Below, one piece after another: positions 13,263 to 59,797 of a stretch of 60,445 bases of DNA. A program made the translations under genes and the position numbers. The stretch comes from Patescibacteria group bacterium. GTDB taxonomy: Bacteria; Patescibacteriota; Microgenomatia; UBA1400; PJMF01. The notes beneath the pieces were generated by a model. It searched no databases. It was not told the DNA's origin and was given only the letters and a program-made list of their open reading frames with translations. The stretch is taken from positions 1 through 60,445 of the forward strand of contig JBPOHR010000003.1 of assembly GCA_052035325.1 (NCBI GenBank), given 5' to 3'. Numbering within the stretch: position 1 is the stretch's first letter; every line of letters starts with the position of its first letter.

Positions 13263-13315
13263 CACATAGCATACAATCTACATCTCTTCCGTAGACGAGG
13301 TATACTATATAAACT

Positions 13316-27507: not shown

Positions 27508-28887
27508 CTACTTCTGTCTCAAGAAAGCGGGAATTTCAAACTCATCATCAAAATCACTGTCAGCTGCTGGTGTTGGAGTCGTTGTCGTCGGTGTCACCAC
27601 TGCTGGTGCAGGCTGGACAGGTGCTGAAGCACGAGATGGTTGCACTTGATCACCAAAAGCTTGTGATCGCACAAATGGTTGTGTCGGCATATTCATGCTC
27701 GAAGAGCCTGACATTTGTTGACTCATTTGTGGTTGCGTGAATGAACTAGGCGCTCGATCAATCTTCGGTGCCATTGGCTCATCACTTGTCTGTGCCAAAC
27801 CAAAAATCCGAGGTTGTCGCAAACCTGTAGCGGGAGCTGCAGCTACGCTTGGGTTATCACCAAGACGTCGTTGTGATTCTCGACCAAACGCGCCAAAAAT
27901 AGGTCGATTGGTAGCCGCGTAACCCATTTGACGTTCATCAAAACCGGTGGCAATCACACTAATCTTGATGCTCGAGCCCATGTCTTCATCAATAGTCGCA
28001 CCAAATATAATGTTGGCGTCAGGAGCAGCCGCATTGGCAATAATGGCTGAAGCATCAGACACTTCACTCATGGTCATATCTGAACCACCAATCACGTTGT
28101 ATAAGATACCGTGGGCACCATCAATTGACACCTCAAGAAGTGGCGAAGAAATGGCCATCCGTGCGGCTGTAGCAGCCCGATTTTCACCAGAGGCTTCACC
28201 AATTCCCATCAAAGCAGAACCAGAATCAGCCATAATGGTCTTCACATCTGCGAAGTCCACATTGATCAAACCAGGTACGGTAATTAAGTCAGAAATACCC
28301 TGGACACCTTGACCAAGTACGTTATCAGCTAAGCGAAACGCATCAAGTAGCGTCATTTTCTTATCCACCACATCCATCAAACGTTGGTTGGGAATCACGA
28401 TTAGTGTATCAACATTTTCTTTGAGCAACTCAATGCCTTCTTCTGCCGACTGCATCCGGCGAATACCTTCAAATGCAAAGGGTTTTGTCACCACAGCCAC
28501 TGTCAAGGCACCAGACTCTTTGGCAATCTGGGCAATAACTGGTGACGCACCGGTCCCCGTGCCACCACCCATACCTGCAGTAATAAACACCATGTCTGTG
28601 TCAAATAACAACTCTTTGATTTTCTCTTTACTTTCCTCAGCTGCAGTGCGACCCACATCAGGGTCGGCGCCAGACCCCAGACCTTTGGTAAAGTTACTGC
28701 CAATTTGCAATTTAGTGTCAGCTTTGGACGTCAACAATGCCTGTGCATCAGTATTGACAGCAATAAACTCCACACCTTGAATCTGGCCAGAGTTGATCAT
28801 CGAGTTGACGGCATTGCCACCACCTCCACCCACGCCAATGACTTTGATCTTGGCGAACGTCGTATTTGTTGGCTTAACCAGTCCCAT
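27508..28887 (-). CDS. ftsZ: Cell division protein FtsZ
   Basis: [23 protein letters not shown] tubulin motif, LINVDFAD, C-terminal [13 protein letters not shown]. Confidence 0.99.
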
Positions 28888-28925
28888 ACATGCCTTTAAT
28901 TACTAACATACCGAAAGTTGAGATC

Positions 28926-28940
28926 AAAGTGTATCACTTT
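28926..28940. promoter_or_regulatory. Inverted repeat AAAGTG-N3-CACTTT overlapping the ftsZ extended -10 (TGA-TACACT, minus strand)
   Basis: Perfect 6-bp arms in the ftsA-ftsZ gap; -10 at 28928-28933. Confidence 0.5.
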
Positions 28941-28969
28941 TTTCTGATGCGCAACAGAGCCTTATCTAG

Positions 28970-30280
28970 TTAGGGAAGTACTGATTTAATCAAATCAACT
29001 AATTTGGTGGCAACCGAACCGATAGGTAATTTTTTGAGTACACCACTGAGATCAAAACCACTAGAGTGTACTTCTGCAATGCCCTGGCGTCGTCCATACT
29101 CTAGGAGTCCAATACATGTAGAAAACGATGGCTTTTGTATATCTGTGACAAGCCCAGTGAGACCCTTTGGCTTACCCACTCTAGCAGGCAGATTTGTAGC
29201 ACGTTTAGCCACTTCCACAATACCAATTGTCTCGGCACCACCCCCAGTAATCACCAAACCAGCGGGAACTTGCCCAACAAGACCTTGTGATTCTAACTGC
29301 TGCATAATGAGCGAAAAAATTTCCTTCATTCGTGGCACCATAATTCCATCTATCAACGTTCGTTTTGATAATGCTTCAGACGCATCTTCCAATCCAAACT
29401 TCTTAGGATCTAGTTCATCGGCTTTTTTGCGCCGCCGGTTAAGTTCTTCTTTTGATTCACCTGGATGTGGCGAAATAGGACTAAGGTCTTCTTTGGACAA
29501 TGCAACTTTAATTTTTTCCGCACTATCTAGACTGACTCGGCAACCAAGAGCAATATCTTGAGTAATGTGACGAGCACCAATCGGCAATGTACCCGAGAAC
29601 ACCAACGCATTTTCAATATAAGCACAAATTGAAGTAGTGCCAGCGCCAATGTCTACCACAAGGACACCTAATTCTTTTTCCGTTTCGGTCACAACAACTT
29701 CTGCTGAAGCAAGTCCAGAGAACACAAAACCATCCACAGTAATTCCTAAATCATGCAAACATTTTTCAAAGTTCCTCAATGCTGTAGACATACCCGTAAT
29801 CAAATGAGCTTTTGCCTCAAGTCTCACGCCTGTCATACCTACCGGATCCTTGATACCATCTTGTGAATCTACCGTAAAATCCCCTGGAATAACATGAATA
29901 ATTTCTCGGTCAGCAGGAAGCGATACCGCTCGTGCAGCCTCGATCACTCGTGAGACATCTTCGCTGGTAATCTCTTGTGATGGCGAAGCAACTGCCACAA
30001 CACCTGTGGAATTCTGTGAACCAATATGCGTCCCCGCAAATGAAATAAACGCACTGCGGACATCAAAACCTGCCATACGCTCCGCAGCGTCAAGACTTTC
30101 GGTCATAGTCTCAAGAGCCTGTTCAAGATTGATTATGGTGCTACGACGAACACCTCGCGTGGGCACGACAGAAACACCTACCACCTGCAACTGATTACTT
30201 CCTTCTGGTTGTGTAGCAATCAGGGTGACACATTTGTCTGTGCCTAAATCTATAGCGGTTATTGGTGCGACACGAGGCAT
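28970..30280 (-). CDS. ftsA: Cell division protein FtsA
   Basis: AIDLGTDK, DPVGMTGVRLE, VDIGAGTT, LVITGGGA, C-terminal amphipathic helix. Confidence 0.98.
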   Translation of the reverse strand: MPRVAPITAIDLGTDKCVTLIATQPEGSNQLQVVGVSVVPTRGVRRSTIINLEQALETMTESLDAAERMAGFDVRSAFISFAGTHIGSQNSTGVVAVASPSQEITSEDVSRVIEAARAVSLPADREIIHVIPGDFTVDSQDGIKDPVGMTGVRLEAKAHLITGMSTALRNFEKCLHDLGITVDGFVFSGLASAEVVVTETEKELGVLVVDIGAGTTSICAYIENALVFSGTLPIGARHITQDIALGCRVSLDSAEKIKVALSKEDLSPISPHPGESKEELNRRRKKADELDPKKFGLEDASEALSKRTLIDGIMVPRMKEIFSLIMQQLESQGLVGQVPAGLVITGGGAETIGIVEVAKRATNLPARVGKPKGLTGLVTDIQKPSFSTCIGLLEYGRRQGIAEVHSSGFDLSGVLKKLPIGSVATKLVDLIKSVLP

Positions 30281-30314
30281 AAAGTAAACGTACGAGCTTT
30301 AAGCATAGCAACTC

Positions 30315-31028
30315 TCATGAATTGTGTCGAGGTAGTGTTGGTGTTGTGCGCAACACGGGCAACGCATAACGAGTATCTACTTCGACAATTGGCTCCGGAT
30401 AGGTGCTCCAGTCTATACCTGACTGGATAACGTGCCAACGCTGCCAATCAAGTTGCCATTCATGCAAGTTTAAAATAACAGTACGCTCATCGCTGCGAAA
30501 CGATAAGACATGAGTATCATCATACGCTATTTCTGTAAGCGCTTGGGAGTGACTTTCGCTCAAAAATGCAGCTAGTAATTGCGTATCACGCATAAACTCC
30601 TCTGATGAGTCTTGCCAAATGTGCCAAACACTAGGTGAGACATGGACGCTTGAAATGGAAGCAGGTATTTCTTGTAACAATAACAACGTGTGGCGATCAG
30701 TAATTGCCCATGACTCTTCTTCTACTTGTGCAATAAACAGAATACGTTCATTTGCTAACGTCACGTGTAAGGTCATTGGCCACCGCCGCGCGTATTCTGC
30801 TATGTATACACCAGTATTCGCCCCAAGGGAAACTACTGGGATTTTATTAAACAACATTCGCTGACCTTGTAGTGACTTAAGAGCTCGTATCTCTGTGTCT
30901 GTACACTCTCGTTCTGGATGACTGCAAGTCACGTGATCTACTTTCCACAGCCATACGCTTCCTACCACGACAGCACTCATCAAGAACCACCAGATAATCG
31001 TTTGGGGTTGGGCTAAACGGGCTGACAT
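30315..31028 (-). CDS. ftsQ: FtsQ/DivIB-like protein (divergent)
   Basis: Position between murG and ftsA, single N-terminal TM, RRWPMTL.V.L segment, C-terminal VEVDTRY..PVLR. Confidence 0.6.
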   Translation of the reverse strand: MSARLAQPQTIIWWFLMSAVVVGSVWLWKVDHVTCSHPERECTDTEIRALKSLQGQRMLFNKIPVVSLGANTGVYIAEYARRWPMTLHVTLANERILFIAQVEEESWAITDRHTLLLLQEIPASISSVHVSPSVWHIWQDSSEEFMRDTQLLAAFLSESHSQALTEIAYDDTHVLSFRSDERTVILNLHEWQLDWQRWHVIQSGIDWSTYPEPIVEVDTRYALPVLRTTPTLPRHNS

Positions 31029-31031
31029 ACA

Positions 31032-32144
31032 CTATGGTGATGCCACATCTTCAATATGTGACCAAAGATGATGAAGTGCTTTATCATTGTAACGATGTTT
31101 CTCAAGATGGCGGCGATAATCTTGGTTTTTGTCGATTGCTTCTTGAAGTGTGTCATGCAAAACTGCTGGAGTTAATGCTGACTGAGGAATACTTCGAGCT
31201 GCACCTGTGGAAACGAGTGGTTCAGCATTTTTTGTCTGCTCATCTTGACTTGCCGTTGGTAATGGAATCAGAATCGCCGGAACGCCAAAGTGAACAAATT
31301 CTGTAATGGTATTGGCTCCAGCTCTACCAACTACAACGGTAGCATGTTGCCAAATCCAAGCTAGTTCCGACTCAGTAAACCATGACTTTGCCATGTACCT
31401 TTGTTGGAGTGCAGTTGGTAGTAATCGTACTGTTGCGTGCAATTCCTCTTGATAGTTATGTTGAATCGTTGCATTGCCACATTGGTGAATAACTATCCAC
31501 TTACTCAACATCACGGGAAGCAATTCTTTGATGACTTGGTTAATAACCAGTGCACCTTGATTGCCCCCAGTTACAAATACGACAGGCACCTTATCCTGGC
31601 ACCACCAGCCTGGCTGTGAAGCCAGCTTACGTAAACCTGGCCTCAATGGATTACCCGTTACATATGCTTTGTGTTGGAGTGAATGTGGTAGTAAACTCCG
31701 TGATGATTCAAAACTAAGGGCAATTCGCTGTGCGAATTGGCCAATAAATCGTGTTGCATACCCAATCACACGTGTCTGTTCATGCGTAACAATAGGAATA
31801 CCTCGGACTGCTGCAGCAACTGCAAACGGGACTGCTTGATACCCCCCAAAGGAAACAAGCACATCAACTTCTTCATCTTGAATAAGTGAGAATGCTTGCC
31901 AAACTGCCTTCAACATTCTGAACAAACTTAGCACCGATTTCACTCCCCTTGGTGCGGCAAATAGCACAAATCGAGTATTACGATGTTGTCCCACTTCATG
32001 GCTCTCATGACTCTCTTGGAGTAATTGATCTTGGCTATATTTCCTGCCAGCAAACACTATTTGTACGTCGCTACGTGCTTCTTCCAAGTACTCAATAAGT
32101 GCCAATGCAGGTGTGAGGTGACCACCGGGTATAAGTATTGTCAT
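31032..32144 (-). CDS. murG: Lipid II GlcNAc transferase MurG
   Basis: GGHLTPALA, SFGGYQAVP, HEQT, TGNPLR, VTGGNQGA, GRAGANT, DEQTKNA. Confidence 0.96.
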   Translation of the reverse strand: MTILIPGGHLTPALALIEYLEEARSDVQIVFAGRKYSQDQLLQESHESHEVGQHRNTRFVLFAAPRGVKSVLSLFRMLKAVWQAFSLIQDEEVDVLVSFGGYQAVPFAVAAAVRGIPIVTHEQTRVIGYATRFIGQFAQRIALSFESSRSLLPHSLQHKAYVTGNPLRPGLRKLASQPGWWCQDKVPVVFVTGGNQGALVINQVIKELLPVMLSKWIVIHQCGNATIQHNYQEELHATVRLLPTALQQRYMAKSWFTESELAWIWQHATVVVGRAGANTITEFVHFGVPAILIPLPTASQDEQTKNAEPLVSTGAARSIPQSALTPAVLHDTLQEAIDKNQDYRRHLEKHRYNDKALHHLWSHIEDVASP

Positions 32145-33268
32145 GATGCTGACTGTAGTGTACTGGATTTTCGCGATACTGTCCCGTGTCGGCTGGCATG
32201 CAATAGTACGCCGCTAGCAAATAAAATCATGATGAGAGCTGTCCCTCCATATGAGAAAAAAGGCAGTGGCACCCCCGTAAGTGGAACCAGTGCCACCACA
32301 GCGCCCAGATTAAGCACAGTTTGGGCTGTTAACCATGTCAATATGCCAAAACTTAATAATTGTGCGGTTTTATCAAGTTCACTGGTAATAATGACGCGCA
32401 AACTTGTCGCAAAAAAAGCTATGTAGAGCCCTATCAGTAGTAACGAGCCAACAAGACCCACTTCTTCAGCTATTACCGCAAAAATTGAATCAGTGCTCGG
32501 CTCAGGCAAGTATGAATACTTTTGTTGAGACTGACCAATTCCTTGACCAAACACCCCGCCATTTCCCAAGGCTAGTGTTATTTGTCTAATATGAAAGCTT
32601 GCTCCCAATGGGTCAGATTCAGGGTTAAGGTAGGTCAATAGTCTTTCGCGTCGATATGGTGCTGCCAATACTAATATGGCCAAAATCACAATGCCAACAG
32701 TTCCCACACCTAGTAAATGTTTGAATTGGCCACCCGCCACATAATACTGTGCGCCAGCAATGCTAAGCAAAATGAGAACTGAACCCAAATCAGGTTGAAG
32801 CAGTACTAAACCTGCCGGAATTGCAGTTAAAGCGAGAAAAGGGACTAATCGTTGATGTCGACTCATCCACATGGCAAAAAACGCGACTGTTGCAAACTTT
32901 ACCACTTCAATTGGTTGGAAAATAAAACCGGCAATTGAAATCCACCGGTGTGCTCCATTTAGTTCTCTGCCAATTCCAGGAATGAAAATCGCAATCAACA
33001 GTAAGATACTAAGGCCATACAACCACGGGCTTAGAGTACTCCACACCTTTGTGGGCATCAAATAACCGATTGCTAAAGCCCCAATACCTAACAAAAAGTG
33101 AAATGCTTGCTGTTTGAACAAAAAATATGGATCATTAAAGGTGACGTACGACTCGTATAAAGACGCATTCAAAACGAAAAACAAACCTAGTCCACTCAAA
33201 ACAAGAATCAAGATTAATAACACTCGACTAGACGTAAACAAGCTAACGTTTAAATGACGGCGAGCCAT
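32141..33268 (-). CDS. ftsW: SEDS protein FtsW
   Basis: NGAHRWI, FQPIEVVK, QPDLGS, PYRRERL, YLPEPSTDSIF, TGVPLPFFSYGG; start set at ATG 33268. Confidence 0.95.
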   Translation of the reverse strand: MARRHLNVSLFTSSRVLLILILVLSGLGLFFVLNASLYESYVTFNDPYFLFKQQAFHFLLGIGALAIGYLMPTKVWSTLSPWLYGLSILLLIAIFIPGIGRELNGAHRWISIAGFIFQPIEVVKFATVAFFAMWMSRHQRLVPFLALTAIPAGLVLLQPDLGSVLILLSIAGAQYYVAGGQFKHLLGVGTVGIVILAILVLAAPYRRERLLTYLNPESDPLGASFHIRQITLALGNGGVFGQGIGQSQQKYSYLPEPSTDSIFAVIAEEVGLVGSLLLIGLYIAFFATSLRVIITSELDKTAQLLSFGILTWLTAQTVLNLGAVVALVPLTGVPLPFFSYGGTALIMILFASGVLLHASRHGTVSRKSSTLQSAS

Positions 33269-34293
33269 AGACCAAATAGCGTGAGAATAATTTGTGCCAC
33301 CCACGCCCGTTGGACAATTTTAGGCTCTTCCCAGCCATACTTCTGTAAGAACAAGTGAAAAGGCGCGGCAGGAATAATCTTTTTTTTCAAAAATCGCTTT
33401 GACATCAGTTGGATAAATGAACTAGAAATTTCAAAGACGAAAATAAACCCAATCACCAGCAACGCAATCACTTTGCCCAGAAGTAAGCCGACCACAGCCA
33501 GCGTCGCGCCAAAAGCCAACGCACCAACATCACCCATAAACATCCGCGCCGGATACACATTGAAGTAGATAAAAGAGATCAAAGCACCAATCCATAATGC
33601 CAAGAAGGTTGACAAAGCTACATCCAAAATCGAGGCTGACAAAAACATTAATCCAAATAGCGAGATCATCAAAACGCCTGATGCCAAACCATCAAGCCCA
33701 TCTGTAATATTGACGGCGTTGGCAAACGCCACCACTACAAAAGCAGCAAATGGTATATAAAATAAGCCGAGTTGAAATGTGCCAATGAACGGGATGTTGA
33801 GAATTGAAATTCCCAAGTTGAAGTACAGCATACAAGCCACTATGACTGCCAAGATCACTTGTAGTACTAACTTCTGATGTAGTCGCATGCCAAAAAAGCC
33901 ACTTTTTTCGAACTGAAAGAATTTTTTAATATCATCATAGAGACCAAGCAAACCAAATGACAAAAAAGTAAAGAAGATGATGTTAATTTCAGCCTGGTAG
34001 TTACTATATACACCGGTAATATTCAGTCCTGCAAACTGCATCAACGGCACAATTAAACCAAACAAAATCGATACGACCATAATTACCAGCAAACCACCTC
34101 CGACTGGTACTCCCACTTTGTGTCCATGAAATTTGTCAAAAATTGGCGTCAATACACCAAAGGCATCTCGAGTAACTTGCTTGGCTCTTTGAAACTTTAA
34201 ACGGTATAAGGTATTGATAAAGGGCACGATTAAAACACTAGTGACAATAAAGGAGAAAAGTAGAATGCCAAGAAAAGTCGCAAGTTGGTTCAT
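33250..34293 (-). CDS. mraY: Phospho-MurNAc-pentapeptide transferase MraY
   Basis: GLYDD, NAVNITDGLDGLA, FNVYPARMFMGDVG, APFHLFL...GWEE.KIV.R. Confidence 0.95.
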   Translation of the reverse strand: MNQLATFLGILLFSFIVTSVLIVPFINTLYRLKFQRAKQVTRDAFGVLTPIFDKFHGHKVGVPVGGGLLVIMVVSILFGLIVPLMQFAGLNITGVYSNYQAEINIIFFTFLSFGLLGLYDDIKKFFQFEKSGFFGMRLHQKLVLQVILAVIVACMLYFNLGISILNIPFIGTFQLGLFYIPFAAFVVVAFANAVNITDGLDGLASGVLMISLFGLMFLSASILDVALSTFLALWIGALISFIYFNVYPARMFMGDVGALAFGATLAVVGLLLGKVIALLVIGFIFVFEISSSFIQLMSKRFLKKKIIPAAPFHLFLQKYGWEEPKIVQRAWVAQIILTLFGLWLAVI

Positions 34294-34322
34294 GTGTAGT
34301 TATCTTACAACGGATTGAATTG

Positions 34323-35651
34323 CTAGTGTCGTTCAATTTTTGCGCCCATGGCACTAAGTTGATCATCAAGACGTTCGTAACCTCGATCAATATGATCGGT
34401 AGGATCATCAAGAATTGTCTGACCAGCTGCAATTATGCCAGCCACCATCAATGTCGCTCCGTGACGAAGGTCTTTGACGGCAAAATGACCACCTGTCAGC
34501 GCAGTTGGCCCAGTTATTCGCAACGCATGTGGCTCCAGTCTTGAGTCATCATCAAGATTGAAGTTGTAAGTACTGTCCCAATTATCCACTTCAGGTTGAA
34601 AAGTCTCGAGGCTTGCTCCCATTTGCTGCAGTTCATCACGATAACCGAACCGCTGTCGATGTACCGTTTCATGCACCACACTAATTCCCTGAGCCTGGGT
34701 CATCATCGTCACCCAAAGAGGCTGCCAGTCGGTCTTAAAGCCTGGATGTATCGCAGTAGTAACGTCCGTAGCTCGCAAGGGTTGTGTGTAGTAGAAGCGA
34801 ATACCGAAGTGACCCACATCATAACCAGCACCAATCTCATCCAGCTTTGCCAAAAAGGCGGTCAGATCTTTTGCTCGAGCATTCTCAACAATCACGTCAC
34901 CTTTTGTCGCTAAAGCTGCACACGCAAATGACACAACCTGGTTTTGATCTGGCATCACCCGATAAATGGCTCCATGTAGTTGTGGAACACCATTGATGGT
35001 AATGGTACGTGGTGCGGTTCGTTTGATATCAGCACCCATTGCATTTAGAAATCCAATCAGATCATCAACTTCTGTCTCCTCGGCAGCATTTTCCAAAATG
35101 GTTTGCCCTTCAGCAAGTGCTGCGGCCATCACCAACGTTTCGGTGCCAGTATGAGAGTTTTTGCTAAATCGATAGGTCGCACCATGTAGTTTTTCAGCTG
35201 TCGTGACGATTGTGTCACCCTGCACTTCAACATGTGCCCCCAGTGCCTGCAAGCCTTCGAAGTGCCGTTCCAATGGCCGAGGGCCAATTTTGTCACCACC
35301 AGGTTGTGGCACAACTGCCCGCCCATGTCGTGCCAGTAGCACAGGAATAAATAAGGTTGATGCTCGAGAAGCCGCGCCGTGCTTGGCACTAATTTCAGTT
35401 ACATTGGCATCACTCCATGCACTCGGATCTACCATGTATGCCCTATCACCCACCTGATGTGCTGTCGCACCTAATTCGGTAATAATCTGTGCCACACGTT
35501 CAACATCACTGATATGACTGAAATTCAGCAACCTTGATGGTGTATCAGCTAACAATGCCGCAATCATCAGTTTGTAGGAAGCATTTTTTGCGCCACCAAC
35601 TCGTACGGAACCATAGAGTGGGGTTCCCCCCGTGATTAAGAAGGTACTCAT
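34323..35651 (-). CDS. murA: UDP-GlcNAc 1-carboxyvinyltransferase MurA (Asp at the active-site Cys position)
   Basis: GAKNAS, PGGDKIGPRP, HPGFKTD, ETVHRQRF, KDLRHGA, IDRGYE; start set at ATG 35651. Confidence 0.95.
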   Translation of the reverse strand: MSTFLITGGTPLYGSVRVGGAKNASYKLMIAALLADTPSRLLNFSHISDVERVAQIITELGATAHQVGDRAYMVDPSAWSDANVTEISAKHGAASRASTLFIPVLLARHGRAVVPQPGGDKIGPRPLERHFEGLQALGAHVEVQGDTIVTTAEKLHGATYRFSKNSHTGTETLVMAAALAEGQTILENAAEETEVDDLIGFLNAMGADIKRTAPRTITINGVPQLHGAIYRVMPDQNQVVSFACAALATKGDVIVENARAKDLTAFLAKLDEIGAGYDVGHFGIRFYYTQPLRATDVTTAIHPGFKTDWQPLWVTMMTQAQGISVVHETVHRQRFGYRDELQQMGASLETFQPEVDNWDSTYNFNLDDDSRLEPHALRITGPTALTGGHFAVKDLRHGATLMVAGIIAAGQTILDDPTDHIDRGYERLDDQLSAMGAKIERH

Positions 35652-35652
35652 A

Positions 35653-36615
35653 TTAGGTAGTCCCCAAGTAGAAGACTTCTTCCTGCAAGTGTACACCAAA
35701 TGTCTCAAATACGCGTTTTTTCACTAGTTCAATAAGGTCTTTAACTTGCTGAGCGGTACCGTTTCCTGTATTGACCATAAATGCTGCATGGACCTGACTT
35801 ACCTCAATATCGCCAATTCGCGTGCCTTTGAGGCCTGCATGATCAATTAAAAAACCTGCGGGCACATGACTACGATGGGCAAATTGAGGAAAACGCGATT
35901 TGAGTTCGTCTGTGTTGGGCGGATTTTGGAAAATACAGCCTGAACTAGGTACTCCGAGCGGCTGTGTGCTTGCTCGGTACTGCGTTGCCTGCTTGATCAA
36001 TGCTTGTGAAGTTGCCTCATCCCCATCGGGCAATCGGAACTCCACCGCCCAAATAATCTCGTTACTCGTTTGGAAGCGGCTATGGTCATACTCAAAATCA
36101 CACTGCTCGGCATCCAACCACTGGACATAACCATCCTCAATATCAACGACTTGGACACGTGTCACATATTCGCTTATCAGGTGCTCCATGTAGTGTGCAT
36201 TGTTAAAAATTGCACCACCTATCGTACCGGGCACCCCCAAAAAATACTCTAGCCCACTTAGGCCGGCTTGAATTACTTGGCGAACGGCGGTGGCAGTCTT
36301 GCAACCTGCGCCGATCACACACCGATGTGGATCTTCTGTATTAAAAACGATCTCGCGAAAGGCTACTCTTATCACAATACCGTCAATTCCTTTGTCAGAA
36401 ACCACTACGTTACTTGCTCCACCTAATACGGTAACTGGACAATTTTCCGCCTGACACCACACTAAAACGTGTTGCAGTACCACAAGTGTATCAACATCAA
36501 GAAAAAGCTCGGCTACTCCACCTAACTTGAAGTAAGTAATCGTCGACAAGTCAAAATCAAGTTGCCAAGATAATGTAGGAAAGTCAGTAATAATCTTAGT
36601 TTGCCATGCTGTCAT
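35653..36615 (-). CDS. murB: UDP-N-acetylenolpyruvoylglucosamine reductase MurB
   Basis: TYFKLGG, LGGASNVVV, GLEYFLGVPGTIGGA, SSGCIFQNP, HAAFMVN, LQEEV. Confidence 0.95.
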   Translation of the reverse strand: MTAWQTKIITDFPTLSWQLDFDLSTITYFKLGGVAELFLDVDTLVVLQHVLVWCQAENCPVTVLGGASNVVVSDKGIDGIVIRVAFREIVFNTEDPHRCVIGAGCKTATAVRQVIQAGLSGLEYFLGVPGTIGGAIFNNAHYMEHLISEYVTRVQVVDIEDGYVQWLDAEQCDFEYDHSRFQTSNEIIWAVEFRLPDGDEATSQALIKQATQYRASTQPLGVPSSGCIFQNPPNTDELKSRFPQFAHRSHVPAGFLIDHAGLKGTRIGDIEVSQVHAAFMVNTGNGTAQQVKDLIELVKKRVFETFGVHLQEEVFYLGTT

Positions 36616-36621
36616 AAATTA

Positions 36622-38064
36622 TCAATCTAGTTTCAGTCCATCATACACATGATAAATATCACCTGCACCTACCGTCAAACACACCATACCTTTCTCTAAT
36701 TTTGTGACCAATATCTCCCTTAGCGTCGGCAAAGTATGATAATTCGTTGCTTTGTGAGCACCTGCGTGTGTGTTGATCGAATCACACAATAAATCACTTG
36801 TCACCGTAGGATCAAGTGCCTCCCGTGCTGAGGGAAAAATATCGATCATTGCCACTTCGTCTGCTTCATCAAACGCCGTTACAAAGTCAGCAAATAAAGC
36901 TTTGGTCCGAGAAAAGGTATGAGATTGAAAAGCCACCATCAACCGAGATTCAGGAAACCACTCTCGATAAGCATGAATGATTGCTCGCACTTCATGCGGG
37001 TGATGAGCATAGTCGTCATACAGTTTTGCTCCTCGATAGTGACCAATATATTCAGCACGACGTTTAGTGGAACGGAAAGATGTCAACGCCTCAACTGCAG
37101 CAGCTACTGTTACACCGTATTTCTGGACTGCCAACACCGCTGCTAAGGCATTCAATAGATTAAAGCGACCGGGTAGTTGCAACCGCAGGGTAGCTGGCTG
37201 TCCTAAGACCAGAATGTCGGTCTCTGTCATTCCTGCATTTGCCACAACATCACCAATAAGTCGTGCATCCGCAGTGGCATCGTCACCAAAGTAGGTGTAC
37301 TGTACTTTTAGTTGATGTATTGCTCGAATTTCTTCAGCGGCTTTTCGATGGGAGACATTCATAATGATCTGCCCATCAGCCGGTACTGTCTCAAAAAAAG
37401 TTCCAAATACTTCTAGTGTATGAGCAAAGTCTCGATACACATCGGGATGATCAAACTCCAGATTGGTACACACAATCGTCTGTGGTCGCAAAAAAGAAAA
37501 GCGAGGAGTGATTGGTTCGCCTCTGCTAGGTGCTGTACTGTCGATCACGTACTCGTCTGCCTCTGCCACGAAAACTTGACTCGTCTCGCGCCACGCACCA
37601 GTACCAAGCAAACCTGGGATCCCACCTACCCCTATCGCATAACTTGGCGTGTGAGCGGTTTTTTCGAGGATCCAGGCAATCATTGCTGAGGTAGTTGATT
37701 TACCACCGACGCCACAAACTGCAATCCCTTCTTTCTGATTGAACATCCAGCTGAGTGCTTCTGCGTGTGAGGCCGTCGGAATTTCTTGCTCATTTGCCCG
37801 CACCACTTGAGGATTAAACTTACCTTGATGCGCTGCCGTATAGACGACGACATCTGTATCTGGCGGCAAAGGCGCCAAAAAATCAGTACCAATTGGTACT
37901 GACAACTGATCGAGTGCTTCTTTGGTCACAAAATCTTCCGACACGTCAACGCCAGTTACTCGTTTGCCGGCTGCCGCCAAACACTGAGCTAAAGCTGTCA
38001 TCGCCACACCCTTGATCCCAACTAAATGCCACTGGTCAAATGACTGCCACAAAGGAACTGTCAT
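36622..38064 (-). CDS. murC: UDP-MurNAc--L-alanine ligase MurC
   Basis: GIKGVAMTALA, GKSTTS, VAEADE, EFDHPD, DDYAHHPHEV, FQSHTFSRT, GAGDI. Confidence 0.95.
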   Translation of the reverse strand: MTVPLWQSFDQWHLVGIKGVAMTALAQCLAAAGKRVTGVDVSEDFVTKEALDQLSVPIGTDFLAPLPPDTDVVVYTAAHQGKFNPQVVRANEQEIPTASHAEALSWMFNQKEGIAVCGVGGKSTTSAMIAWILEKTAHTPSYAIGVGGIPGLLGTGAWRETSQVFVAEADEYVIDSTAPSRGEPITPRFSFLRPQTIVCTNLEFDHPDVYRDFAHTLEVFGTFFETVPADGQIIMNVSHRKAAEEIRAIHQLKVQYTYFGDDATADARLIGDVVANAGMTETDILVLGQPATLRLQLPGRFNLLNALAAVLAVQKYGVTVAAAVEALTSFRSTKRRAEYIGHYRGAKLYDDYAHHPHEVRAIIHAYREWFPESRLMVAFQSHTFSRTKALFADFVTAFDEADEVAMIDIFPSAREALDPTVTSDLLCDSINTHAGAHKATNYHTLPTLREILVTKLEKGMVCLTVGAGDIYHVYDGLKLD

Positions 38065-39035
38065 GTGAGTACTTCCTGAAATACAGGCGAGAGTTTGCTA
38101 GAGTCATGTCGGAGCAGTGATCGATGTGCAGTATCAACTTCTGATGTTTGGAATACTTCATTGGCAATCACCGATCGACGTAGAACTCGGGGATCATCAC
38201 CCATATCATCAACCACAGGATACTCGTGTTCTTCGGCATAGTACTTCAATGTTTGATCATCGATGACTTCAGTATTAATCAGTATGTAGTCCACTGGTCG
38301 ACCCAATGCAGACTCGATACCAGCGATATGATCATGTGCTGACATATCTGGAGTTTGGGTGTTGCGAGTCATTAAATTGAGGACATACAGCACCTTACCA
38401 GAAATATGTGCGAAGACTTCTTTCGTCCCGCCAGCAACAAGCACCGCCATCAAACTAGCATAATAATCACCTGGTCCTATCACAATCAAATCAGCAGTTC
38501 CCAGTGCGTCGGCAGCTTGTGGATTCAGCTGGGCGGGAGGTTGTAAACTAACGGAACTTACTTTTTTCGGCTTGGCACTATCCTCATCCAAAATATGCTC
38601 ACCCACTGCCATAGTTCCATCACTGTAGTTGATCTGCAATTGGACATTTTCTTTAGTCGCTGGAATGACCGTGCCATCGATACGGAACACTTTTTCGGCA
38701 ATTTCTAAAGCTTGAGTCGTATCACCAGTCATATCTTGCAAGGCAGTTAGAATAAGATTACCCAAGTTATGACCCTTGAGACCCTCACCCTTCTTGAATC
38801 GATACAATAGAATGTTTCGAATCCACTCCTCACCTTGATTTTCAGCAAGAGCTGCCAATGACTGGCGCAAATCACCCACAGCCTGAAAACCAAACTCATC
38901 TCGGATACGCCCCGTCGAACCTCCCGAGTCTGAAACAGCTATCACCGTTGAGATTGATGCTCCTATTTGTTTAAACGCCTGGATCACGGGAAATGTTCCG
39001 GTTCCACCGCCCATCACTACAACTTGTTTTGCCAT
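38061..39035 (-). CDS. yvcK: YvcK/GlmR (UPF0052, CofD-like) UDP-sugar-binding protein
   Basis: VVMGGGTG, DSGGSTGRIR, GDLRQ, GHNLGNL, IGPG, LLRHDS.KL. Confidence 0.9.
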   Translation of the reverse strand: MAKQVVVMGGGTGTFPVIQAFKQIGASISTVIAVSDSGGSTGRIRDEFGFQAVGDLRQSLAALAENQGEEWIRNILLYRFKKGEGLKGHNLGNLILTALQDMTGDTTQALEIAEKVFRIDGTVIPATKENVQLQINYSDGTMAVGEHILDEDSAKPKKVSSVSLQPPAQLNPQAADALGTADLIVIGPGDYYASLMAVLVAGGTKEVFAHISGKVLYVLNLMTRNTQTPDMSAHDHIAGIESALGRPVDYILINTEVIDDQTLKYYAEEHEYPVVDDMGDDPRVLRRSVIANEVFQTSEVDTAHRSLLRHDSSKLSPVFQEVLT

Positions 39036-39044
39036 GGTATCTTT

Positions 39045-40274
39045 CTAAGAAGTCGTTGAAGCTTCACCAAGAGCCCGTTTAACGGCTCCCAGATCACTCC
39101 ATGGATATTCGGTAGTACCAATACACATACTTGCTTCGTGGCCTTTACCAAAAATCCCAACGATATCTCCTTTTTTCGCCAATTCAGTGATAGCAAAGGT
39201 AATAGCCATTTGTCGATCGGCAATTGTGAGAATTTTGTTATGACCCGTCGTCAGCTGTTCCTTCATTTCACGAATAATACTCCAGATATCTTCTTGACGT
39301 GGGTCTTCAGCCGTCAAAATAACGTAATCTGCTAAATCACACGCGATAGCTGTCATCATGGGACGTTTGCCACGATCACGTTCACTAGCACATCCAAATA
39401 CAGCAATTATTTTTGATTTCGATTGTTTTTTTTGCATTTGAAGTGCTGTGAGTGCATTTTCCAATCCTTGAGGGGTGTGTGCAAAGTCGATCACAATATC
39501 TAAGCCTTTTTTGTTGGGGACACGTTCCATTCTGCCAGGAACAGCAGTAAAAGTCGCAAATCCTGCTGCCGCTTGCTCCGGTGTGACACCAACCCGAGAT
39601 GCCAATGCATACACAAGTCGCGCATTCGAGTGATTGTATGGCTCAAGAAATCGATCATCAATCGCTTGCGCTACTACTTTGGGTAATGTGTCTTGAACTG
39701 AATACTCCACAACTTGTGCTGCATTTCCACGCAGTTCTTTACGCACCTTGGCGTGTGATTGGTCATCCGCATTTATCACTGCCACAGTAGCTGATTTTAA
39801 CAACAAGGCCTTAGCTGCCACATATCGCTCATACGTTAGATGATAGTCAAGATGTTCATGAGCAATGTTGGTCAGTCCAGCTAGATTTGGTCGCCATCCC
39901 CAGGTGCGTGATTGATAAATACCATGCGAGGTTGTTTCGATTACCAAGTGTGTGCAACCTTCACGCACCATCTCTCGCATGAACGAGAATACTTGACTTG
40001 GCAGCGGAGCAGTAACGTGAAATCCTGTGTCAAATTGTCGATCACCAATGTACGCCGCAACTGTACTAATAAGACCCACCTTATACCCTGCCGACTTCAG
40101 TACGTGGTAGAGCATCGTCGCCGAGGTGGTTTTCCCATCTGTGCCAGTAATAGCAAGTATCTGGAGTTTACGTTGAGGAAAGCCATTTCTAATCATTGCT
40201 GGCAGACCATTGAACAAACCTGTCTTGATTATGTGAACAGGTCTTTTGAGCCAATAGAGCAATTCAGCTAGCAT
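39045..40274 (-). CDS. murE: MurE-like Mur ligase (short, 409 aa)
   Basis: ITGTDGKTT, HVTAP, ETTSHG, EHLDYH, VPGRME, DFAHTP, GCASERDRGKRP.M, TAEDPR, GKGHE. Confidence 0.85.
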   Translation of the reverse strand: MLAELLYWLKRPVHIIKTGLFNGLPAMIRNGFPQRKLQILAITGTDGKTTSATMLYHVLKSAGYKVGLISTVAAYIGDRQFDTGFHVTAPLPSQVFSFMREMVREGCTHLVIETTSHGIYQSRTWGWRPNLAGLTNIAHEHLDYHLTYERYVAAKALLLKSATVAVINADDQSHAKVRKELRGNAAQVVEYSVQDTLPKVVAQAIDDRFLEPYNHSNARLVYALASRVGVTPEQAAAGFATFTAVPGRMERVPNKKGLDIVIDFAHTPQGLENALTALQMQKKQSKSKIIAVFGCASERDRGKRPMMTAIACDLADYVILTAEDPRQEDIWSIIREMKEQLTTGHNKILTIADRQMAITFAITELAKKGDIVGIFGKGHEASMCIGTTEYPWSDLGAVKRALGEASTTS

Positions 40275-40293
40275 ATGAATGATTGATTATAGC

Positions 40294-42060
40294 CTAGTTC
40301 AAAATTGATTTATCAGGGGGAATATTCATTACTAAAAATACCTTTTTTGCCACTCGATACCAGAGCGGGGCCGCTGTCTCTGCTGCCCATGGGGAGGATG
40401 TTGGCTCAACCAACTTCACCAACATTATAAACTCGGGGTGATCAGGTGGAGCAAATCCTATGAATGTCGCAATGGTCCTATCTGTAGCATAGCCACCCGG
40501 AATCGGAACTTGAGATGTACCAGTTTTGGCTGCCACCCAATGATCATTCGACGCAATCCATTGCGCTTCACCTTTTTGAGCTGCATACACCATCATTTCA
40601 GTTACTTTTTGCGCTGTCTGGGCAGAGACTGGTTCTGATTCAATTACTGGTTCACTCATCAGGATTTCACCTGTATTGAAGTCTTCTGCTGTTTTGATAA
40701 GCGTAGGTCGGACAACTTTCCCTTGATTGGCAATTGCATTAATAGCTTTCAAGACTTGCAGGCTTGTCGTACTAATACCCTGGCCAAACGAAATCGTCGC
40801 CAACTCTACAGGGCCCCACTGTGCTGGAAATGGTGGTGAAGTATCCTCTTGCAACTCAACTCCAGCTTCGTGACCTAAACCAAATTTCTGAAGATAGCTC
40901 TTTAACTTTTCAGATCCCAACTGTTCTGCTACAAAAATCATTGCCGTATTGTCCGACTTTGCGATTGCCTCGGTCATGGTGATATTAGGATGATATTCAT
41001 TGTTCCACGTCTTCAAGGTGAAACCTGCAATTTTGCGAGGACCATCACACTGCGGGCACTGTGTTTCTGGCGTAATGACGCCTGCATCGATTCCAGCTGC
41101 CACGGTCAGTGTTTTCAAGGTAGATCCCGGCTCATATCCGCTGGAAACCGCAGGGTTTTTATAGAGTTGTGCATCAAAATCAGCAAACGCAGCAGGATCA
41201 TAGCCAGGAGCAGTTGCCATTGCCAAAATGTGACCGGTTTGGGGTTGCATAATAATAATTTCGCCACTTTTGGCACCGTACTGCTCTAATCCATACGCCA
41301 AATTTTCCTCTGCGATATGTTGTAAATCTCGTCGAATCGTTAACGTAATGTCACGACCATCCTGAGGTCTTGAAGCTAATAAACTGCTTGGAAGCTTTAA
41401 ACCAGGTAATACTCGAGGCAATATGCGGCGATCAAATGCTCCACTCAACTCACGATCCAACGCGCCTTCTATTCCAAAATATCCCACATCATCTCCTCCC
41501 TCATTTTTTCCAACAAACCCTACCACTTGTGCTGCTAAAGATGCTTCTGGATACGCTCGCGCAAAATATGGTTCTGTGCCTACACCTGTAATTTCAAGAT
41601 GCTTGACCGCACTACGATGCACTTCATCAAGTCCATCTAGCAACATCACCCACTTTGCTCCCTGCCTGGACAACTTCACTACTAAAGTATCCTCGATTTG
41701 TCGTAACTGAGTTGCCGCAGAAACTGAAGCCGAAACAGGGGCTAAATCAAGTACGAGCGGTGCCAATTGTCTTGCTACCTCTGATGGGGTAGTGGTAAGT
41801 AAATGTGGTTGGGCAAATAACCGATATCGCTGTTCTGTCATCACCACGGTATACCCATCGGCAGTTTTGATACTTCCTCGCTTACCTTGAGTAATTATCA
41901 GTTTTTCGTATTGGGATTTCGCCTCTGCTCGTAAAACAGGACCCCTAATTATTTGCCAGTAACTTAGCCGCACAACTATGGCAATCATCAGCAATATAAA
42001 TACAACCACCATCACCTGGAGTCTCTCCGGTGCTAAATGTTCCGCTGTTGATTGAATCAT
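40294..42060 (-). CDS. ftsI: Class B penicillin-binding protein (FtsI/PBP3)
   Basis: YEPGSTLK (SxxK), KSDN (SxN), AKTGT (KTG); follows ftsL. Confidence 0.92.
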   Translation of the reverse strand: MIQSTAEHLAPERLQVMVVVFILLMIAIVVRLSYWQIIRGPVLRAEAKSQYEKLIITQGKRGSIKTADGYTVVMTEQRYRLFAQPHLLTTTPSEVARQLAPLVLDLAPVSASVSAATQLRQIEDTLVVKLSRQGAKWVMLLDGLDEVHRSAVKHLEITGVGTEPYFARAYPEASLAAQVVGFVGKNEGGDDVGYFGIEGALDRELSGAFDRRILPRVLPGLKLPSSLLASRPQDGRDITLTIRRDLQHIAEENLAYGLEQYGAKSGEIIIMQPQTGHILAMATAPGYDPAAFADFDAQLYKNPAVSSGYEPGSTLKTLTVAAGIDAGVITPETQCPQCDGPRKIAGFTLKTWNNEYHPNITMTEAIAKSDNTAMIFVAEQLGSEKLKSYLQKFGLGHEAGVELQEDTSPPFPAQWGPVELATISFGQGISTTSLQVLKAINAIANQGKVVRPTLIKTAEDFNTGEILMSEPVIESEPVSAQTAQKVTEMMVYAAQKGEAQWIASNDHWVAAKTGTSQVPIPGGYATDRTIATFIGFAPPDHPEFIMLVKLVEPTSSPWAAETAAPLWYRVAKKVFLVMNIPPDKSILN

Positions 42061-42344
42061 CGCAAAGCCACGGTGGTAGGTGCTGTCACTGCAGCAACCT
42101 GTTCAATAGGCTGGAATTGGTTATACACAGAACTTGACTTAAGTTGAAGCAGCGAGTGTTGGTATGCCAACGTTCGCTCCAAATCCTGACGTTCAGAAAG
42201 TAAGTCTGCCTTATTTTTTTGTAGATCTGCGACAGATTGTTGAGATGCCAAAGCCGTCCCAGAAGTGATTACTGTACTTAACGCCTGAATAACTACAATG
42301 GCAATGAGCAAACCATAGTACAGTGCAGTGGTGCGGTATGTCAT
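42057..42344 (-). CDS. ftsL: FtsL-like protein
   Basis: 95 aa, TM plus coiled coil, between rsmH and ftsI with overlapping stop/start codons. Confidence 0.6.
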   Translation of the reverse strand: MTYRTTALYYGLLIAIVVIQALSTVITSGTALASQQSVADLQKNKADLLSERQDLERTLAYQHSLLQLKSSSVYNQFQPIEQVAAVTAPTTVALR

Positions 42345-43228
42345 ACTTCAAATATCCTTAGTTTTGCGCTGCGACTGCGAGGATTTTCCTCGAGCTCAAC
42401 AGCACCTGGTGTTAGTACGTCTTTGTTAATGCGGTGACCATATCCTGATTTTTCCCAAGCAACAAACTGTTGCTTAACCAAGCGGTCTTCCCCTTCGTGA
42501 AATGCAATCGTGATAATTCGTCCTTGTTTCAATAAATTTGGAATCTGAACTAAGACCTGAGATATGACGTCCATTTCTTGATTCACTGCCACTCGTAATG
42601 CTTGAAAAATCTTGGTAGCGGGATGCAGATGACCAGTGCGAGGATTGTGTTTAGCAATCAAATCAGCTAATTCCTGAGCACTTGGGTGCTCTGCAGCCGA
42701 AAAACGAGCAATCCACTTTTTGATGGTGGGGGCTAGTCGGTACGCCGCAAACTCGCCATGTTCTTTGAAGAGTTGTTCAAGCTGCTTAACCGGCAAGACC
42801 CTGAGCAAATCTTCGGCGGTCACACCCAAGCGATCATCCATCCTCATATCAAGAGGGGCTGAACTTGTGAAGCCAAAACCACGGTGATCGGCGAGAAGTT
42901 GATCAGAACTTGTCCCAAAATCAAACAAAATCCCGCGTAAATTATCGAGTGCGAATGTTGAGTTACCAACAGCTGACTTAACCGCTGCTGCTAGTTCAGA
43001 GAAGTTGCGACGTAGCAACACTACTTGTTCTGCAGAAATTGCTGATTTGAACTCTGTTTGACCGTACTCAATTGCTTCAGTATCTACATCCAGTGCAAGC
43101 ACTTTGCCACCTCGGCTTAAGATTTCACGAGTGTGTCCTCCTCGACCGAAAGTCGCATCTATGTACCAGTTACCTGGCTCTACTTGTAGGGCATCGACGG
43201 CTTCATGAAGTAAGACGGTTTTATGCAT
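42341..43228 (-). CDS. rsmH: 16S rRNA m4C1402 methyltransferase RsmH (MraW)
   Basis: H.TVLL.E, IDATFGRGGH, PLDMRMD, HPATKIFQALRVAVN, FHEGEDR, ENPRSRSAKLR; start set at ATG 43228 (43249 also possible). Confidence 0.96.
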   Translation of the reverse strand: MHKTVLLHEAVDALQVEPGNWYIDATFGRGGHTREILSRGGKVLALDVDTEAIEYGQTEFKSAISAEQVVLLRRNFSELAAAVKSAVGNSTFALDNLRGILFDFGTSSDQLLADHRGFGFTSSAPLDMRMDDRLGVTAEDLLRVLPVKQLEQLFKEHGEFAAYRLAPTIKKWIARFSAAEHPSAQELADLIAKHNPRTGHLHPATKIFQALRVAVNQEMDVISQVLVQIPNLLKQGRIITIAFHEGEDRLVKQQFVAWEKSGYGHRINKDVLTPGAVELEENPRSRSAKLRIFEV

Positions 43229-43673
43229 GGTGTTGTTTGAGTGTTGCATCAGGTGAATCTGTCATGTGTTCGGCAATATCTTCTGCTTGGCTCTCCAAGT
43301 TATCGACATACGTGTGATAGAGAGGCACGTCCCAGATCTCAATCCAGGAAAAGCTGCCTACAATTACCACATTTTTCTGAAGTTTGGCGAACTCAATCAA
43401 GTACTCGGGCAGTTGTACTCGACCATTGTTGTCAACCTCGACTTCGACGGCGTCATTTGTCATAAGACGAACAAAGTCACGATTATATTTCACTGTGAAG
43501 GTGCGCTCCGAGAGCTCCGCAATTTTCTGTTGAAAGTCCTGGGCGGGAAAACCAAATAGTCCCCCATCCAAACCTCTCGTCAGTATCCAGTTGGTGGTGT
43601 ACTCACGAAATGTTTTGGGCAGCGAGAGGCGATTATTCGTCTCAATGGTGTGATAAAAGCGCCCGATGAACAT
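43221..43673 (-). CDS. mraZ: Transcriptional regulator MraZ
   Basis: MFIGRFYHTIE..NRLSLP, TRGLDG.L, VDNNGRVQLP, EIWD; start set at ATG 43673. Confidence 0.96.
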   Translation of the reverse strand: MFIGRFYHTIETNNRLSLPKTFREYTTNWILTRGLDGGLFGFPAQDFQQKIAELSERTFTVKYNRDFVRLMTNDAVEVEVDNNGRVQLPEYLIEFAKLQKNVVIVGSFSWIEIWDVPLYHTYVDNLESQAEDIAEHMTDSPDATLKQHHA

Positions 43674-43684
43674 TTTTATAAGCT

Positions 43685-43704
43685 TTTTTACCAATTTTTA
43701 CCAA
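43685..43704 (-). promoter_or_regulatory. Tandem 10-bp direct repeat (TTGGTAAAAA)x2 upstream of mraZ, a candidate MraZ operator
   Basis: Perfect 10-bp period, 12-31 nt upstream of the mraZ ATG. Confidence 0.65.
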
Positions 43705-50167: not shown

Positions 50168-50220
50168 AGTCATCTAGTATAGCTGATGAATGGCGTATGC
50201 TGCAACTTAGCTTTTAGCTT

Positions 50221-51873: not shown

Positions 51874-51896
51874 ACATCACAAGTCTAATACATAGA

Positions 51897-52517
51897 CTAC
51901 CACTTGGAAATCATAGCTTTGGGGGTTTTGATTAAAATCTCAATATCCTTCAAGATTGACCGATTGCGCGCATACTCGGCATCCATCTTGGCCCTGATTG
52001 GAAACGGCACCTCGTTGCGCCCACCTGTTTGCCAAGGACCAGTGATCCCAGGCTTAACCGATAAAATATCTTTGATTATTTCTCTAGTTTCCGGATATTT
52101 TTGGCTTTGTTCATCAAGTTCACGACGGACATACGCCCGAGGCCCCACCATACTCATGTCGCCTTTGAGCACATTGTAGATCTGAGGAAACTCGTCTATT
52201 GTCAGAGAACGCAAGGCTTTACCGAGTTTGGTGATGCGAGGATCGTTTTGGATCTTCCAATCACCTTTTTTAAACTCTTCGAGCAGCTTCTTATCTCGTT
52301 TATGCAAGATATCATCGGCATCTTTGACCATGGATCTGAACTTATACAAATAAAATTCTTTACCATCTTTGCCTACCCGTTTGTGATAAAACAAGATCGG
52401 CCACCCCGAATCAAGAAATACCAAAATCGGCACCACAAACCAGAACGGTAAAAAGAGCACAATCAGGCCAAGTGCAACCACAATATCGAGAATACGTTTT
52501 TGCTGTTCGTACTGCAT
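51897..52517 (-). CDS. Initiating phosphoglycosyl transferase (bacterial sugar transferase, small PGT)
   Basis: KRILDIV, LYKFRSM, DPRITKLG..LR...IDEFPQIYNVLKGDMSMVGPR, VKPGITGPWQ. Confidence 0.95.
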   Translation of the reverse strand: MQYEQQKRILDIVVALGLIVLFLPFWFVVPILVFLDSGWPILFYHKRVGKDGKEFYLYKFRSMVKDADDILHKRDKKLLEEFKKGDWKIQNDPRITKLGKALRSLTIDEFPQIYNVLKGDMSMVGPRAYVRRELDEQSQKYPETREIIKDILSVKPGITGPWQTGGRNEVPFPIRAKMDAEYARNRSILKDIEILIKTPKAMISKW

Positions 52518-52523
52518 AGTGCC

Positions 52524-54741: not shown

Positions 54742-54745
54742 ATAG

Positions 54746-55828: not shown

Positions 55829-55844
55829 GGCAGGCTAGTCTCGT

Positions 55845-56273
55845 TTACTTTGCTGTACGACGAGCTTTCTTGGTTTTGGTTGTTTTCGCAGAACGAGTGG
55901 TCTTGGTAGCAGTTTCCATGTCTTTCATGGCAGCCTGAAGTGCTTTGACACTGTCTTGTTCTGTTGCAGTAGGCCATGTGTTAGCAAACAACTCTTTTTC
56001 AAGTTTACGTGCTTGCATCTCACGCATCATGTTCATCACGACAGCATAGATAAAGTACCCAGCACCAATCGCAAAGATTACTACGGGCATTAACTTGAAG
56101 ACTGCAGGTTGTTCTAGTAATTGTTGACCGGCAAATACGTATTGAATTAGTAGCTGTGGCAAGATTACCAGAGCAAAAAATGCTGCAACTATCACAGCAA
56201 TTGATTCGAGGGTTGTTTGCACATTGCGAGCTCGCAATTGCGTAATCATGAATTCATGGTGGGCGGTTGTCAT
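55845..56273 (-). CDS. Small two-TM membrane protein with a Lys/Thr/Arg-rich C-terminal tail
   Basis: SD AAGGAG, ATG 56273 overlapping the upstream TGA; tail TATKTTRSAKTTKTKKARRTAK. Confidence 0.8.
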   Translation of the reverse strand: MTTAHHEFMITQLRARNVQTTLESIAVIVAAFFALVILPQLLIQYVFAGQQLLEQPAVFKLMPVVIFAIGAGYFIYAVVMNMMREMQARKLEKELFANTWPTATEQDSVKALQAAMKDMETATKTTRSAKTTKTKKARRTAK

Positions 56274-57148: not shown

Positions 57149-57149
57149 G

Positions 57150-58343: not shown

Positions 58344-58344
58344 A

Positions 58345-59796: not shown

Positions 59797-59797
59797 A

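Follow-up and report, generated by a model that had tools for sequence, protein, structure and literature searches.

A YvcK/GlmR homologue between murE and murC in the division and cell-wall cluster of a Microgenomates-type bacterium

YvcK, also called GlmR, is tied in Bacillus subtilis to the supply of UDP-GlcNAc (uridine diphosphate N-acetylglucosamine) and of peptidoglycan precursors. GlmR is a UDP-GlcNAc-binding protein that stimulates GlmS and can form UDP-GlcNAc in vitro (PMC7525490, PMC6171935, PMC10128056, PMC13046274), and in B. subtilis its gene stands in the operon yvcJ-glmR-whiA; according to the literature, yvcK “seems always associated” with yvcJ (PMC7525490). It is at present a matter of dispute whether GlmR works mainly as an enzyme or as a regulator. 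The enzyme side cites the uridyltransferase activity seen in vitro and the phenotypes of mutants in Listeria and Bacillus, while the other side cites Staphylococcus aureus, where natively expressed GlmR cannot substitute in vivo for the uridyltransferases GlmU and NagU (bioRxiv 10.64898/2026.06.23.733835). Here we describe a yvcK/glmR homologue on a complete 60,445-bp contig (“the window” throughout; GC content approximately 45%) from a wastewater metagenome, whose source is a small-genome bacterium of the candidate phyla radiation (CPR), Microgenomates group. In this Microgenomates-type lineage, yvcK is a fixed part of the division and cell-wall (dcw) operon, and its position there offers independent evolutionary evidence on the dispute from a very distant phylum.

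The window's gene codes for an ordinary YvcK/GlmR-family protein, which is soluble and has the CofD fold. Residues 5–323 of its 324 score 251.9 bits with the NCBIfam model TIGR01826 (YvcK subfamily, UPF0052), whose curated cutoff is 196; this bears out an earlier note on this DNA that had called the open reading frame (ORF) a YvcK/GlmR homologue. The sole Pfam match is CofD (PF01933, 240.5 bits). The protein also matches five YvcK-type crystal-structure sequences with E-values down to 1e-48, being approximately 32% identical to the Bacillus-type structures, and its nearest homologues (59–71% identity) come from metagenomes and metagenome-assembled genomes labelled Patescibacteria, Pacebacteria or Microgenomates. 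An AlphaFold2 model of it (predicted local distance difference test score 87.7, predicted template modelling [TM] score 0.89) aligns in Foldseek with 2O2Z at a TM-score of 0.88 (root-mean-square deviation 2.0 Å), with 2HZB at 0.86 and with 2PPV at 0.84. The annotation label “gluconeogenesis factor” is misleading for CPR proteins of this family.

Two other groups of proteins need to be told apart from it. CofD/FbiA, the 2-phospho-L-lactate transferase of F420 synthesis, has the superfamily fold PF01933 in common with the window's YvcK, but the latter reaches just 20.8 bits with TIGR01819, the model of CofD proper, against a cutoff of 257.45, which places it outside CofD/FbiA; the Foldseek TM-scores with CofD/FbiA structures (3C3D, 6UVX) are only 0.50–0.61, and no F420 genes occur in the window. 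GlmU, Arch_glmU, NagU and UAP1 are established producers of UDP-GlcNAc and have an unrelated fold, although the window's YvcK may share their reaction (UTP plus GlcNAc-1-phosphate). The window's YvcK has no NTP_transferase fold, no LAAGKGTR, GTGHA or EYYLTD motifs and no LbH acetyltransferase domain, and is thus not a GlmU-type enzyme.

In the window, yvcK follows murE closely and overlaps murC in a junction of the translational-coupling type (Table 1). The murE stop codon TAG lies at 39045–39047 and the yvcK start codon at 39033–39035, so the 9-nt distance from murE in the earlier note is exact, as is its 4-nt overlap with the murC start. That note had also described yvcK as embedded in a peptidoglycan-precursor operon, with which the profile matches of murE, murC, murB and murA agree. 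MurA is the first UDP-GlcNAc-consuming enzyme. The co-oriented cluster runs mraZ, rsmH, a small ftsL-like ORF, ftsI, murE, yvcK, murC, murB, murA, mraY, ftsW, murG, an ftsQ-like gene, ftsA and ftsZ. Neither promoter-like sites (25, against 30.4 in shuffled sequence) nor terminator-like sites (20, against 14.8 with a standard deviation of 4.2) are in clear excess within it; Rfam and tRNA scans brought up no feature of note within the cluster and did not find a glmS ribozyme in the window.

The murE-yvcK-murC arrangement is not due to chance. A single-protein genome scan returned no relatives, and an alignment-based scan was needed; with one genome per GTDB species, it yielded 80 CPR loci (labelled Lnnn), whose neighbouring genes were assigned by tblastn with the window's dcw proteins. 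In 52 of these loci, mur or fts genes lie within 10 kb of yvcK, and in 30 the three genes directly adjoin each other as in the window, an order also found on independent metagenome contigs; the linkage is therefore conserved, as the earlier note had it. The loci with direct adjacency form a monophyletic group in a neighbour-joining YvcK tree (35 tips including the window), so the arrangement arose once and has since been kept across many species. Neither yvcJ/rapZ nor whiA lies in the 60-kb window, and neither recurs as a neighbour of yvcK in the CPR loci examined. The rapZ/yvcJ-yvcK-whiA setting, which the earlier note had named as the norm for yvcK, is thus missing from the window and from the relatives, and the CPR loci depart from the constant yvcK-yvcJ association that has been published (PMC7525490).

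Sister lineages show what else can stand beside yvcK. In loci whose YvcK is 40–51% identical to that of the window, yvcK is within the cluster but extra genes separate it from murE or murC, and we identified these with E. coli (Escherichia coli) GlmS and GlmU searches and with profile searches. Outside the direct-adjacency clade, 22 of 50 loci have a glm gene no more than 3.5 kb from yvcK: glmS in 9, a stand-alone GlmU N-domain in 8 and an Arch_glmU-type gene in 9. In L047, L050 and L078, glmS stands immediately upstream of yvcK; in L038, L043, L049, L051, L057 and L062 it is no more than 3.5 kb away. The stand-alone GlmU uridyltransferase domain (approximately 250 aa; TIGR01173 202 bits over model positions 2–240; LAAGKGTR, LGTGHA and EYYLTD motifs) is encoded directly downstream of yvcK, with a start/stop overlap in L032, L038 and L055. 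The third type is an archaeal-type bifunctional nucleotidyltransferase/acetyltransferase (TIGR03992, 215–290 bits), which adjoins yvcK even in some loci outside a dcw cluster (L059). Further neighbours of yvcK in sister loci are PgeF, a NagB-like protein, a MurF-like protein, FemAB and Ddl.

These neighbourhoods strongly back the functional tie to UDP-GlcNAc supply that the earlier note had drawn. Since yvcK has left the yvcJ-whiA operon, sits in the dcw cluster and repeatedly stands by glmS or a split or archaeal-type GlmU, the conserved core function of its family should be tied to UDP-GlcNAc production and not to RapZ/YvcJ or WhiA. Because yvcK coexists with GlmU-type genes in the relatives, often in translational coupling, the gene pairing also suggests that YvcK is a partner of GlmU and not a substitute for it. 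The clades that have a uridyltransferase gene next to yvcK and those that have none there make up a natural test set.

The “split” GlmU, i.e., one with no LbH part, is itself common in Microgenomates. It occurs in L032, L035–L040, L048, L050 and L055 (e.g., L032:6009-6767 and L036:10975-11730), is often followed by PgeF, and in some cases has beside it an archaeal-type NTP-transferase/LbH protein of its own kind, encoded separately and approximately 400–427 aa long. The L032 N-domain has 4,569 protein-database homologues (E<=1e-20), and 119 of the best 120 are 239–282 aa long.

A second CPR context of yvcK, not linked to dcw genes, is found in L046, L060–L064, L067, L069, L072, L075 and L076. 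Upstream of yvcK there are a RadA-like ATPase gene, a small ORF and a gene for an RfaE-domain-II-like nucleotidyltransferase (approximately 160 aa), and downstream are, among other genes, those for a solute-binding protein and a VanW/PG_binding_4 protein. Three Parcubacteria-like genomes (L077, L079 and L082, at approximately 10000–12070) carry a tandem yvcK pair (326 and 367 aa) beside GT4 glycosyltransferases, and both copies retain DD, GPGDLYTS and Asn.

The presumed ligand of the window's YvcK, judged by its residues, is UDP-GlcNAc. Mutagenesis of B. subtilis GlmR identified T14, N218, Y265 and R301 as UDP-sugar contacts (PMC5482804, PMC7525490), and alignment to YvcK structure sequences maps these to T12, N220, Y266 and R309 in the window, i.e., all four are kept. 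T12, N220 and R309 are invariant in an alignment of 20 clade sequences. Every full-length CPR YvcK in our motif table has Y266 and R309, and H310 follows R309 in all but one, which has G. The picture differs at the proposed uridyltransferase site of Listeria monocytogenes GlmR, for which D40, D41 and N198 are predicted residues (PMC10128056): the window has D36 (kept), S37 and V198, within the motifs 34-VSDSGGSTG-42 and 187-GPGDYYASLMAVL-199. The first Asp and the N-terminal nucleotide site are thus shared with the L. monocytogenes and S. aureus proteins, whereas N198 is not conserved and the second Asp (D39 in B. subtilis) is replaced by Ser. This mismatch says little, because homologues reported to be functional deviate at the same positions. 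Staphylococcus epidermidis YvcK (2PPV) has DN instead of DD, and E. coli YbhK has DN plus Ile at the N198 position; YbhK is nonetheless reported to complement B. subtilis glmR (PMC13046274), and we therefore dropped the idea that loss of the N198 equivalent means loss of catalysis. Like the window's gene, ybhK lies outside a yvcJ-whiA operon; unlike the window's protein, to which it is 29% identical, YbhK has no Y265 segment, keeps GPGS and has no mur linkage.

The GPGD loop is also unusual. Where B. subtilis has GPGSLYTS, the window has GPGDYYAS, which departs from the canonical GPGSL(Y/F)TS; IGPGDYYASLM aligns with IGPGSLYTSVL of the Bacillus halodurans and S. epidermidis structures and with GPGSFYTS of YbhK. 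The earlier note had read this motif correctly, but the Ser-to-Asp change is no peculiarity of this gene. GPGD is present in 86 of 86 CPR YvcK sequences examined, whatever their genomic context, making it a phylum-level variant; the argument from the motif is weakened accordingly, and we rejected GPGD as a marker of neofunctionalisation. The loop reads GPGD(Y/F/L/H)(Y/F)AS in the window's clade, where the only clade-specific changes are an aromatic next residue (L to Y/F/H), Thr to Ala and the loss of Asn.

MurE, encoded next to yvcK, is also unusual in that it has no N-terminal domain 1, the uridine-nucleotide-binding domain: NCBIfam alignments begin at approximately model position 98. There is no room for a longer murE start, because ftsI ends 19 nt upstream. 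Such a short MurE (358–436 aa) is the norm among related Microgenomates loci, and the YvcK encoded next door would be an obvious candidate to supply UDP binding for it. No murD, murF or ddl was found in the dcw cluster or among the window ORFs scanned with Pfam. In sister loci, murD follows mraY (L035: TIGR01087 332 bits), and MurF-like, FemAB, DegT and Ddl genes are in the cluster.

We think it probable that the window's YvcK is a GlmR-type UDP-GlcNAc factor made in step with the Mur enzymes, and that its gene is a remnant of an ancestral glmS-yvcK-glmU module. A UDP-GlcNAc module centred on yvcK (glmS, yvcK, GlmU-type nucleotidyltransferases and PgeF) would have been inserted among the mur genes of an ancestor of these Microgenomates lineages. 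In the window's clade, the glm genes would then have left the cluster by relocation or loss, with yvcK staying between murE and murC. Its function would be the same as in Firmicutes, i.e., to match UDP-GlcNAc supply to peptidoglycan demand: YvcK may sense or bind UDP-GlcNAc via the conserved T12/N220/Y266/R309 pocket, and may aid the UDP-GlcNAc-forming enzymes, act as an accessory GlcNAc-1-phosphate uridyltransferase, or both. Production from one transcript with MurE, MurC, MurB and MurA would fit such a supply-matching role.

Several points weigh against this reading. We know of no biochemically characterised CPR YvcK; while family, fold, conserved ligand residues, conserved operon position and the glm association in relatives are shown here, we infer the ligand, activity, partner proteins and co-transcription of the window's YvcK. 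The sequencing runs found to contain the locus are wastewater DNA runs only, with no RNA-seq found among them. The partner gene yvcJ/rapZ is missing from every CPR neighbourhood examined, and the window's own clade has no glm gene at a distance of 10 kb or less from yvcK, so the association with glm genes is carried over from sister clades. The retention of one predicted catalytic residue in three is a weak point on the same side. Lastly, activation of GlmS is not a universal mechanism, as the L. monocytogenes GlmR fails to bind that enzyme (PMC10128056).

Alternatively, YvcK could be the main or only GlcNAc-1-phosphate (or MurNAc-1-phosphate) uridylyltransferase of a clade that has lost its GlmU-type gene, with a salvage route (GlcNAc to GlcNAc-6-phosphate to GlcNAc-1-phosphate to UDP-GlcNAc) feeding MurA, MurB and MurC; we consider this unlikely. 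The in vitro synthesis of UDP-GlcNAc by GlmR homologues speaks for it (PMC10128056); against it stands the non-substitution result above, and how far the activity matters in vivo is disputed for S. aureus. The nearest outgroups (L032, L035 and L037) have a stand-alone GlmU gene right after yvcK, which is gone from this site in the window's clade, but YvcK and GlmU-type enzymes occur together in every case where glm genes can be seen. Searches by tblastn with E. coli and CPR seeds and ORF scans found no glmS, glmM or glmU-type gene on the window contig, and tblastn found no glm or GlmU-type gene in approximately 35 clade loci of 20 kb each; these loci, however, cover approximately 2–6% of each genome. 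The additional check is weak and indirect: of the best 120 matches to the L032 GlmU N-domain (46% identity or more) and the best 120 to CPR GlmS, none comes from a contig equal in length to one of the clade's YvcK-bearing contigs, apart from a coincidental 19,632 bp shared with L015, which gave no glmS by tblastn. A genome-collection scan with a GlmU N-domain alignment returned, among the matches listed, mostly unrelated phyla. A GlcNAc-salvage route is the only setting in which GlmR, having no acetyltransferase activity (PMC10128056), could take the place of GlmU, and a GalU-like nucleotidyltransferase encoded beside the cluster in several clade members could possibly serve as the uridylyltransferase instead. 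Together with the retention of D36 alone among the predicted catalytic residues, these points leave the earlier note's proposal of a dedicated supplier that possibly replaces GlmU unsupported, and we rate such a replacement in the window's clade as improbable. The strictest form is slightly more doubtful: the clade would have lost the stand-alone GlmU gene from its genome, and YvcK with its remodelled loop would be the sole GlcNAc-1-phosphate uridylyltransferase, with GlcNAc salvage feeding MurA and MurG. If true, this would be a natural case of GlmR as primary UDP-GlcNAc synthase, and should the clade truly have no further uridyltransferase, no system would be cleaner for demonstrating that GlmR can be the primary enzyme.

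It is distinctly unlikely, in our view, that YvcK is instead a pure sensor or regulator that binds UDP-GlcNAc (or UDP-MurNAc) and modulates MurA, MurC or the domain-1-less MurE, and not GlmS or GlmU. Such a role would suit the tight coupling to both neighbours (a 9-nt spacer on the murE side, an ATGA overlap on the murC side), seen in 30 of 30 direct-adjacency loci, and the conservation of the ligand residues when two of three predicted catalytic positions are not conserved. It would also suit the missing nucleotide-binding domain of MurE here and in most related loci, but the correlation is not a tight one, since MurE is also short in loci where yvcK stands several genes off; a YvcK-Mur ligase interaction is not described in the literature examined, and the sister-lineage context favours glm over mur genes as specific partners. 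CofD transfers phospholactate from a GDP-linked donor, and by analogy YvcK might use a UDP-sugar as donor, pass its phospho-sugar on to an acceptor and release UMP, yielding a CPR-specific envelope precursor. The shared CofD fold and the invariant acidic D190, which takes the place of the GPGS-loop Ser in all CPR sequences examined, would be compatible with this, as would the non-dcw CPR loci that put yvcK beside glycosyltransferases and other sugar nucleotidyltransferases. We nevertheless regard it as highly improbable: acceptor-binding features were not identified, the CofD model score is far under its cutoff, and the conserved residues are those of the YvcK UDP-sugar site. A UDP-GlcNAc factor of the GlmR type is thus the reading we prefer.

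Nothing in this finding is mechanistically unprecedented, and the protein family itself is known. What is new is the fixed dcw place of yvcK in CPR bacteria, the glmS-yvcK-glmU neighbourhoods in sister lineages and the missing RapZ/WhiA context, for none of which we found a description in the literature. Literature searches on CPR or Microgenomates with glmU, glmS or GlcNAc also found nothing, and a paper on dcw-cluster evolution left out CPR.

Table 1. Position of yvcK and its neighbours in the window
Feature	Coordinates	Strand	Details
dcw cluster	27508..43694	minus	co-oriented; from ORF listing plus Pfam/NCBIfam
murE	39045..40274	minus	409 aa; TIGR01085 326 bits (cutoff 257); Mur_ligase_M and Mur_ligase_C only
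murE stop to yvcK ATG spacer	39036..39044	minus	9 nt, AAAGATACC; read from sequence
yvcK/glmR homologue	38061..39035	minus	ATG start, 324 aa; TIGR01826
ATGA overlap	38061..38064	minus	4 nt; yvcK stop TGA and murC start ATG; translational-coupling type junction
murC	36622..38064	minus	480 aa; three Mur-ligase domains; TIGR01082 338 bits (cutoff 335)
murB	35653..36615	minus	NF010480 269 bits
murA	34323..35708	minus	TIGR01072 406.7 bits

The GalU-like sugar-1-phosphate nucleotidyltransferase gene of the window's clade is exemplified by L002:2474-3355 (minus strand, 293 aa), which matches TIGR01099 with 191.7 bits, below the cutoff of 326.8. Its place is immediately upstream of mraZ, on the other strand, with a branched-chain aminotransferase gene beside it in L002; equivalents of the GalU-like gene are present in L010, L012, L021, L022 and L083, and the window has none.

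Some other features of the window concern the cell envelope. There are two FtsW/RodA-family genes, one inside the dcw cluster (32141-33304, minus strand) and one outside it, downstream of ileS (21785-22849, minus strand, 354 aa). A long co-oriented surface-glycan locus occupies 48146-60397 on the minus strand and encodes a DUF4012 protein, an M20 peptidase-like protein, a Bac_transf initiating sugar transferase, GT4 and GT2 glycosyltransferases, PMT_2 proteins, a Wzy_C-like protein and a ManC-type mannose-1-phosphate guanylyltransferase (TIGR01479 297 bits, below cutoff). More PMT_2, GT2 and flippase genes are found at 9340-18089.

Near the start of the window, the region 1-3298 (minus strand) could be taken for an ORF-free 3.3-kb anomaly; we rejected this, as it is dnaE (DNA polymerase III alpha), which continues past the end of the contig and is missing from the ORF listing on that account. 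Between gatB (4102-5433) and the gatA amidase gene (5928-7364) there is an inserted NUDIX hydrolase gene (5440-5970), all on the minus strand, and the small ORF upstream of gatA (7357-7662, minus strand) is probably gatC.

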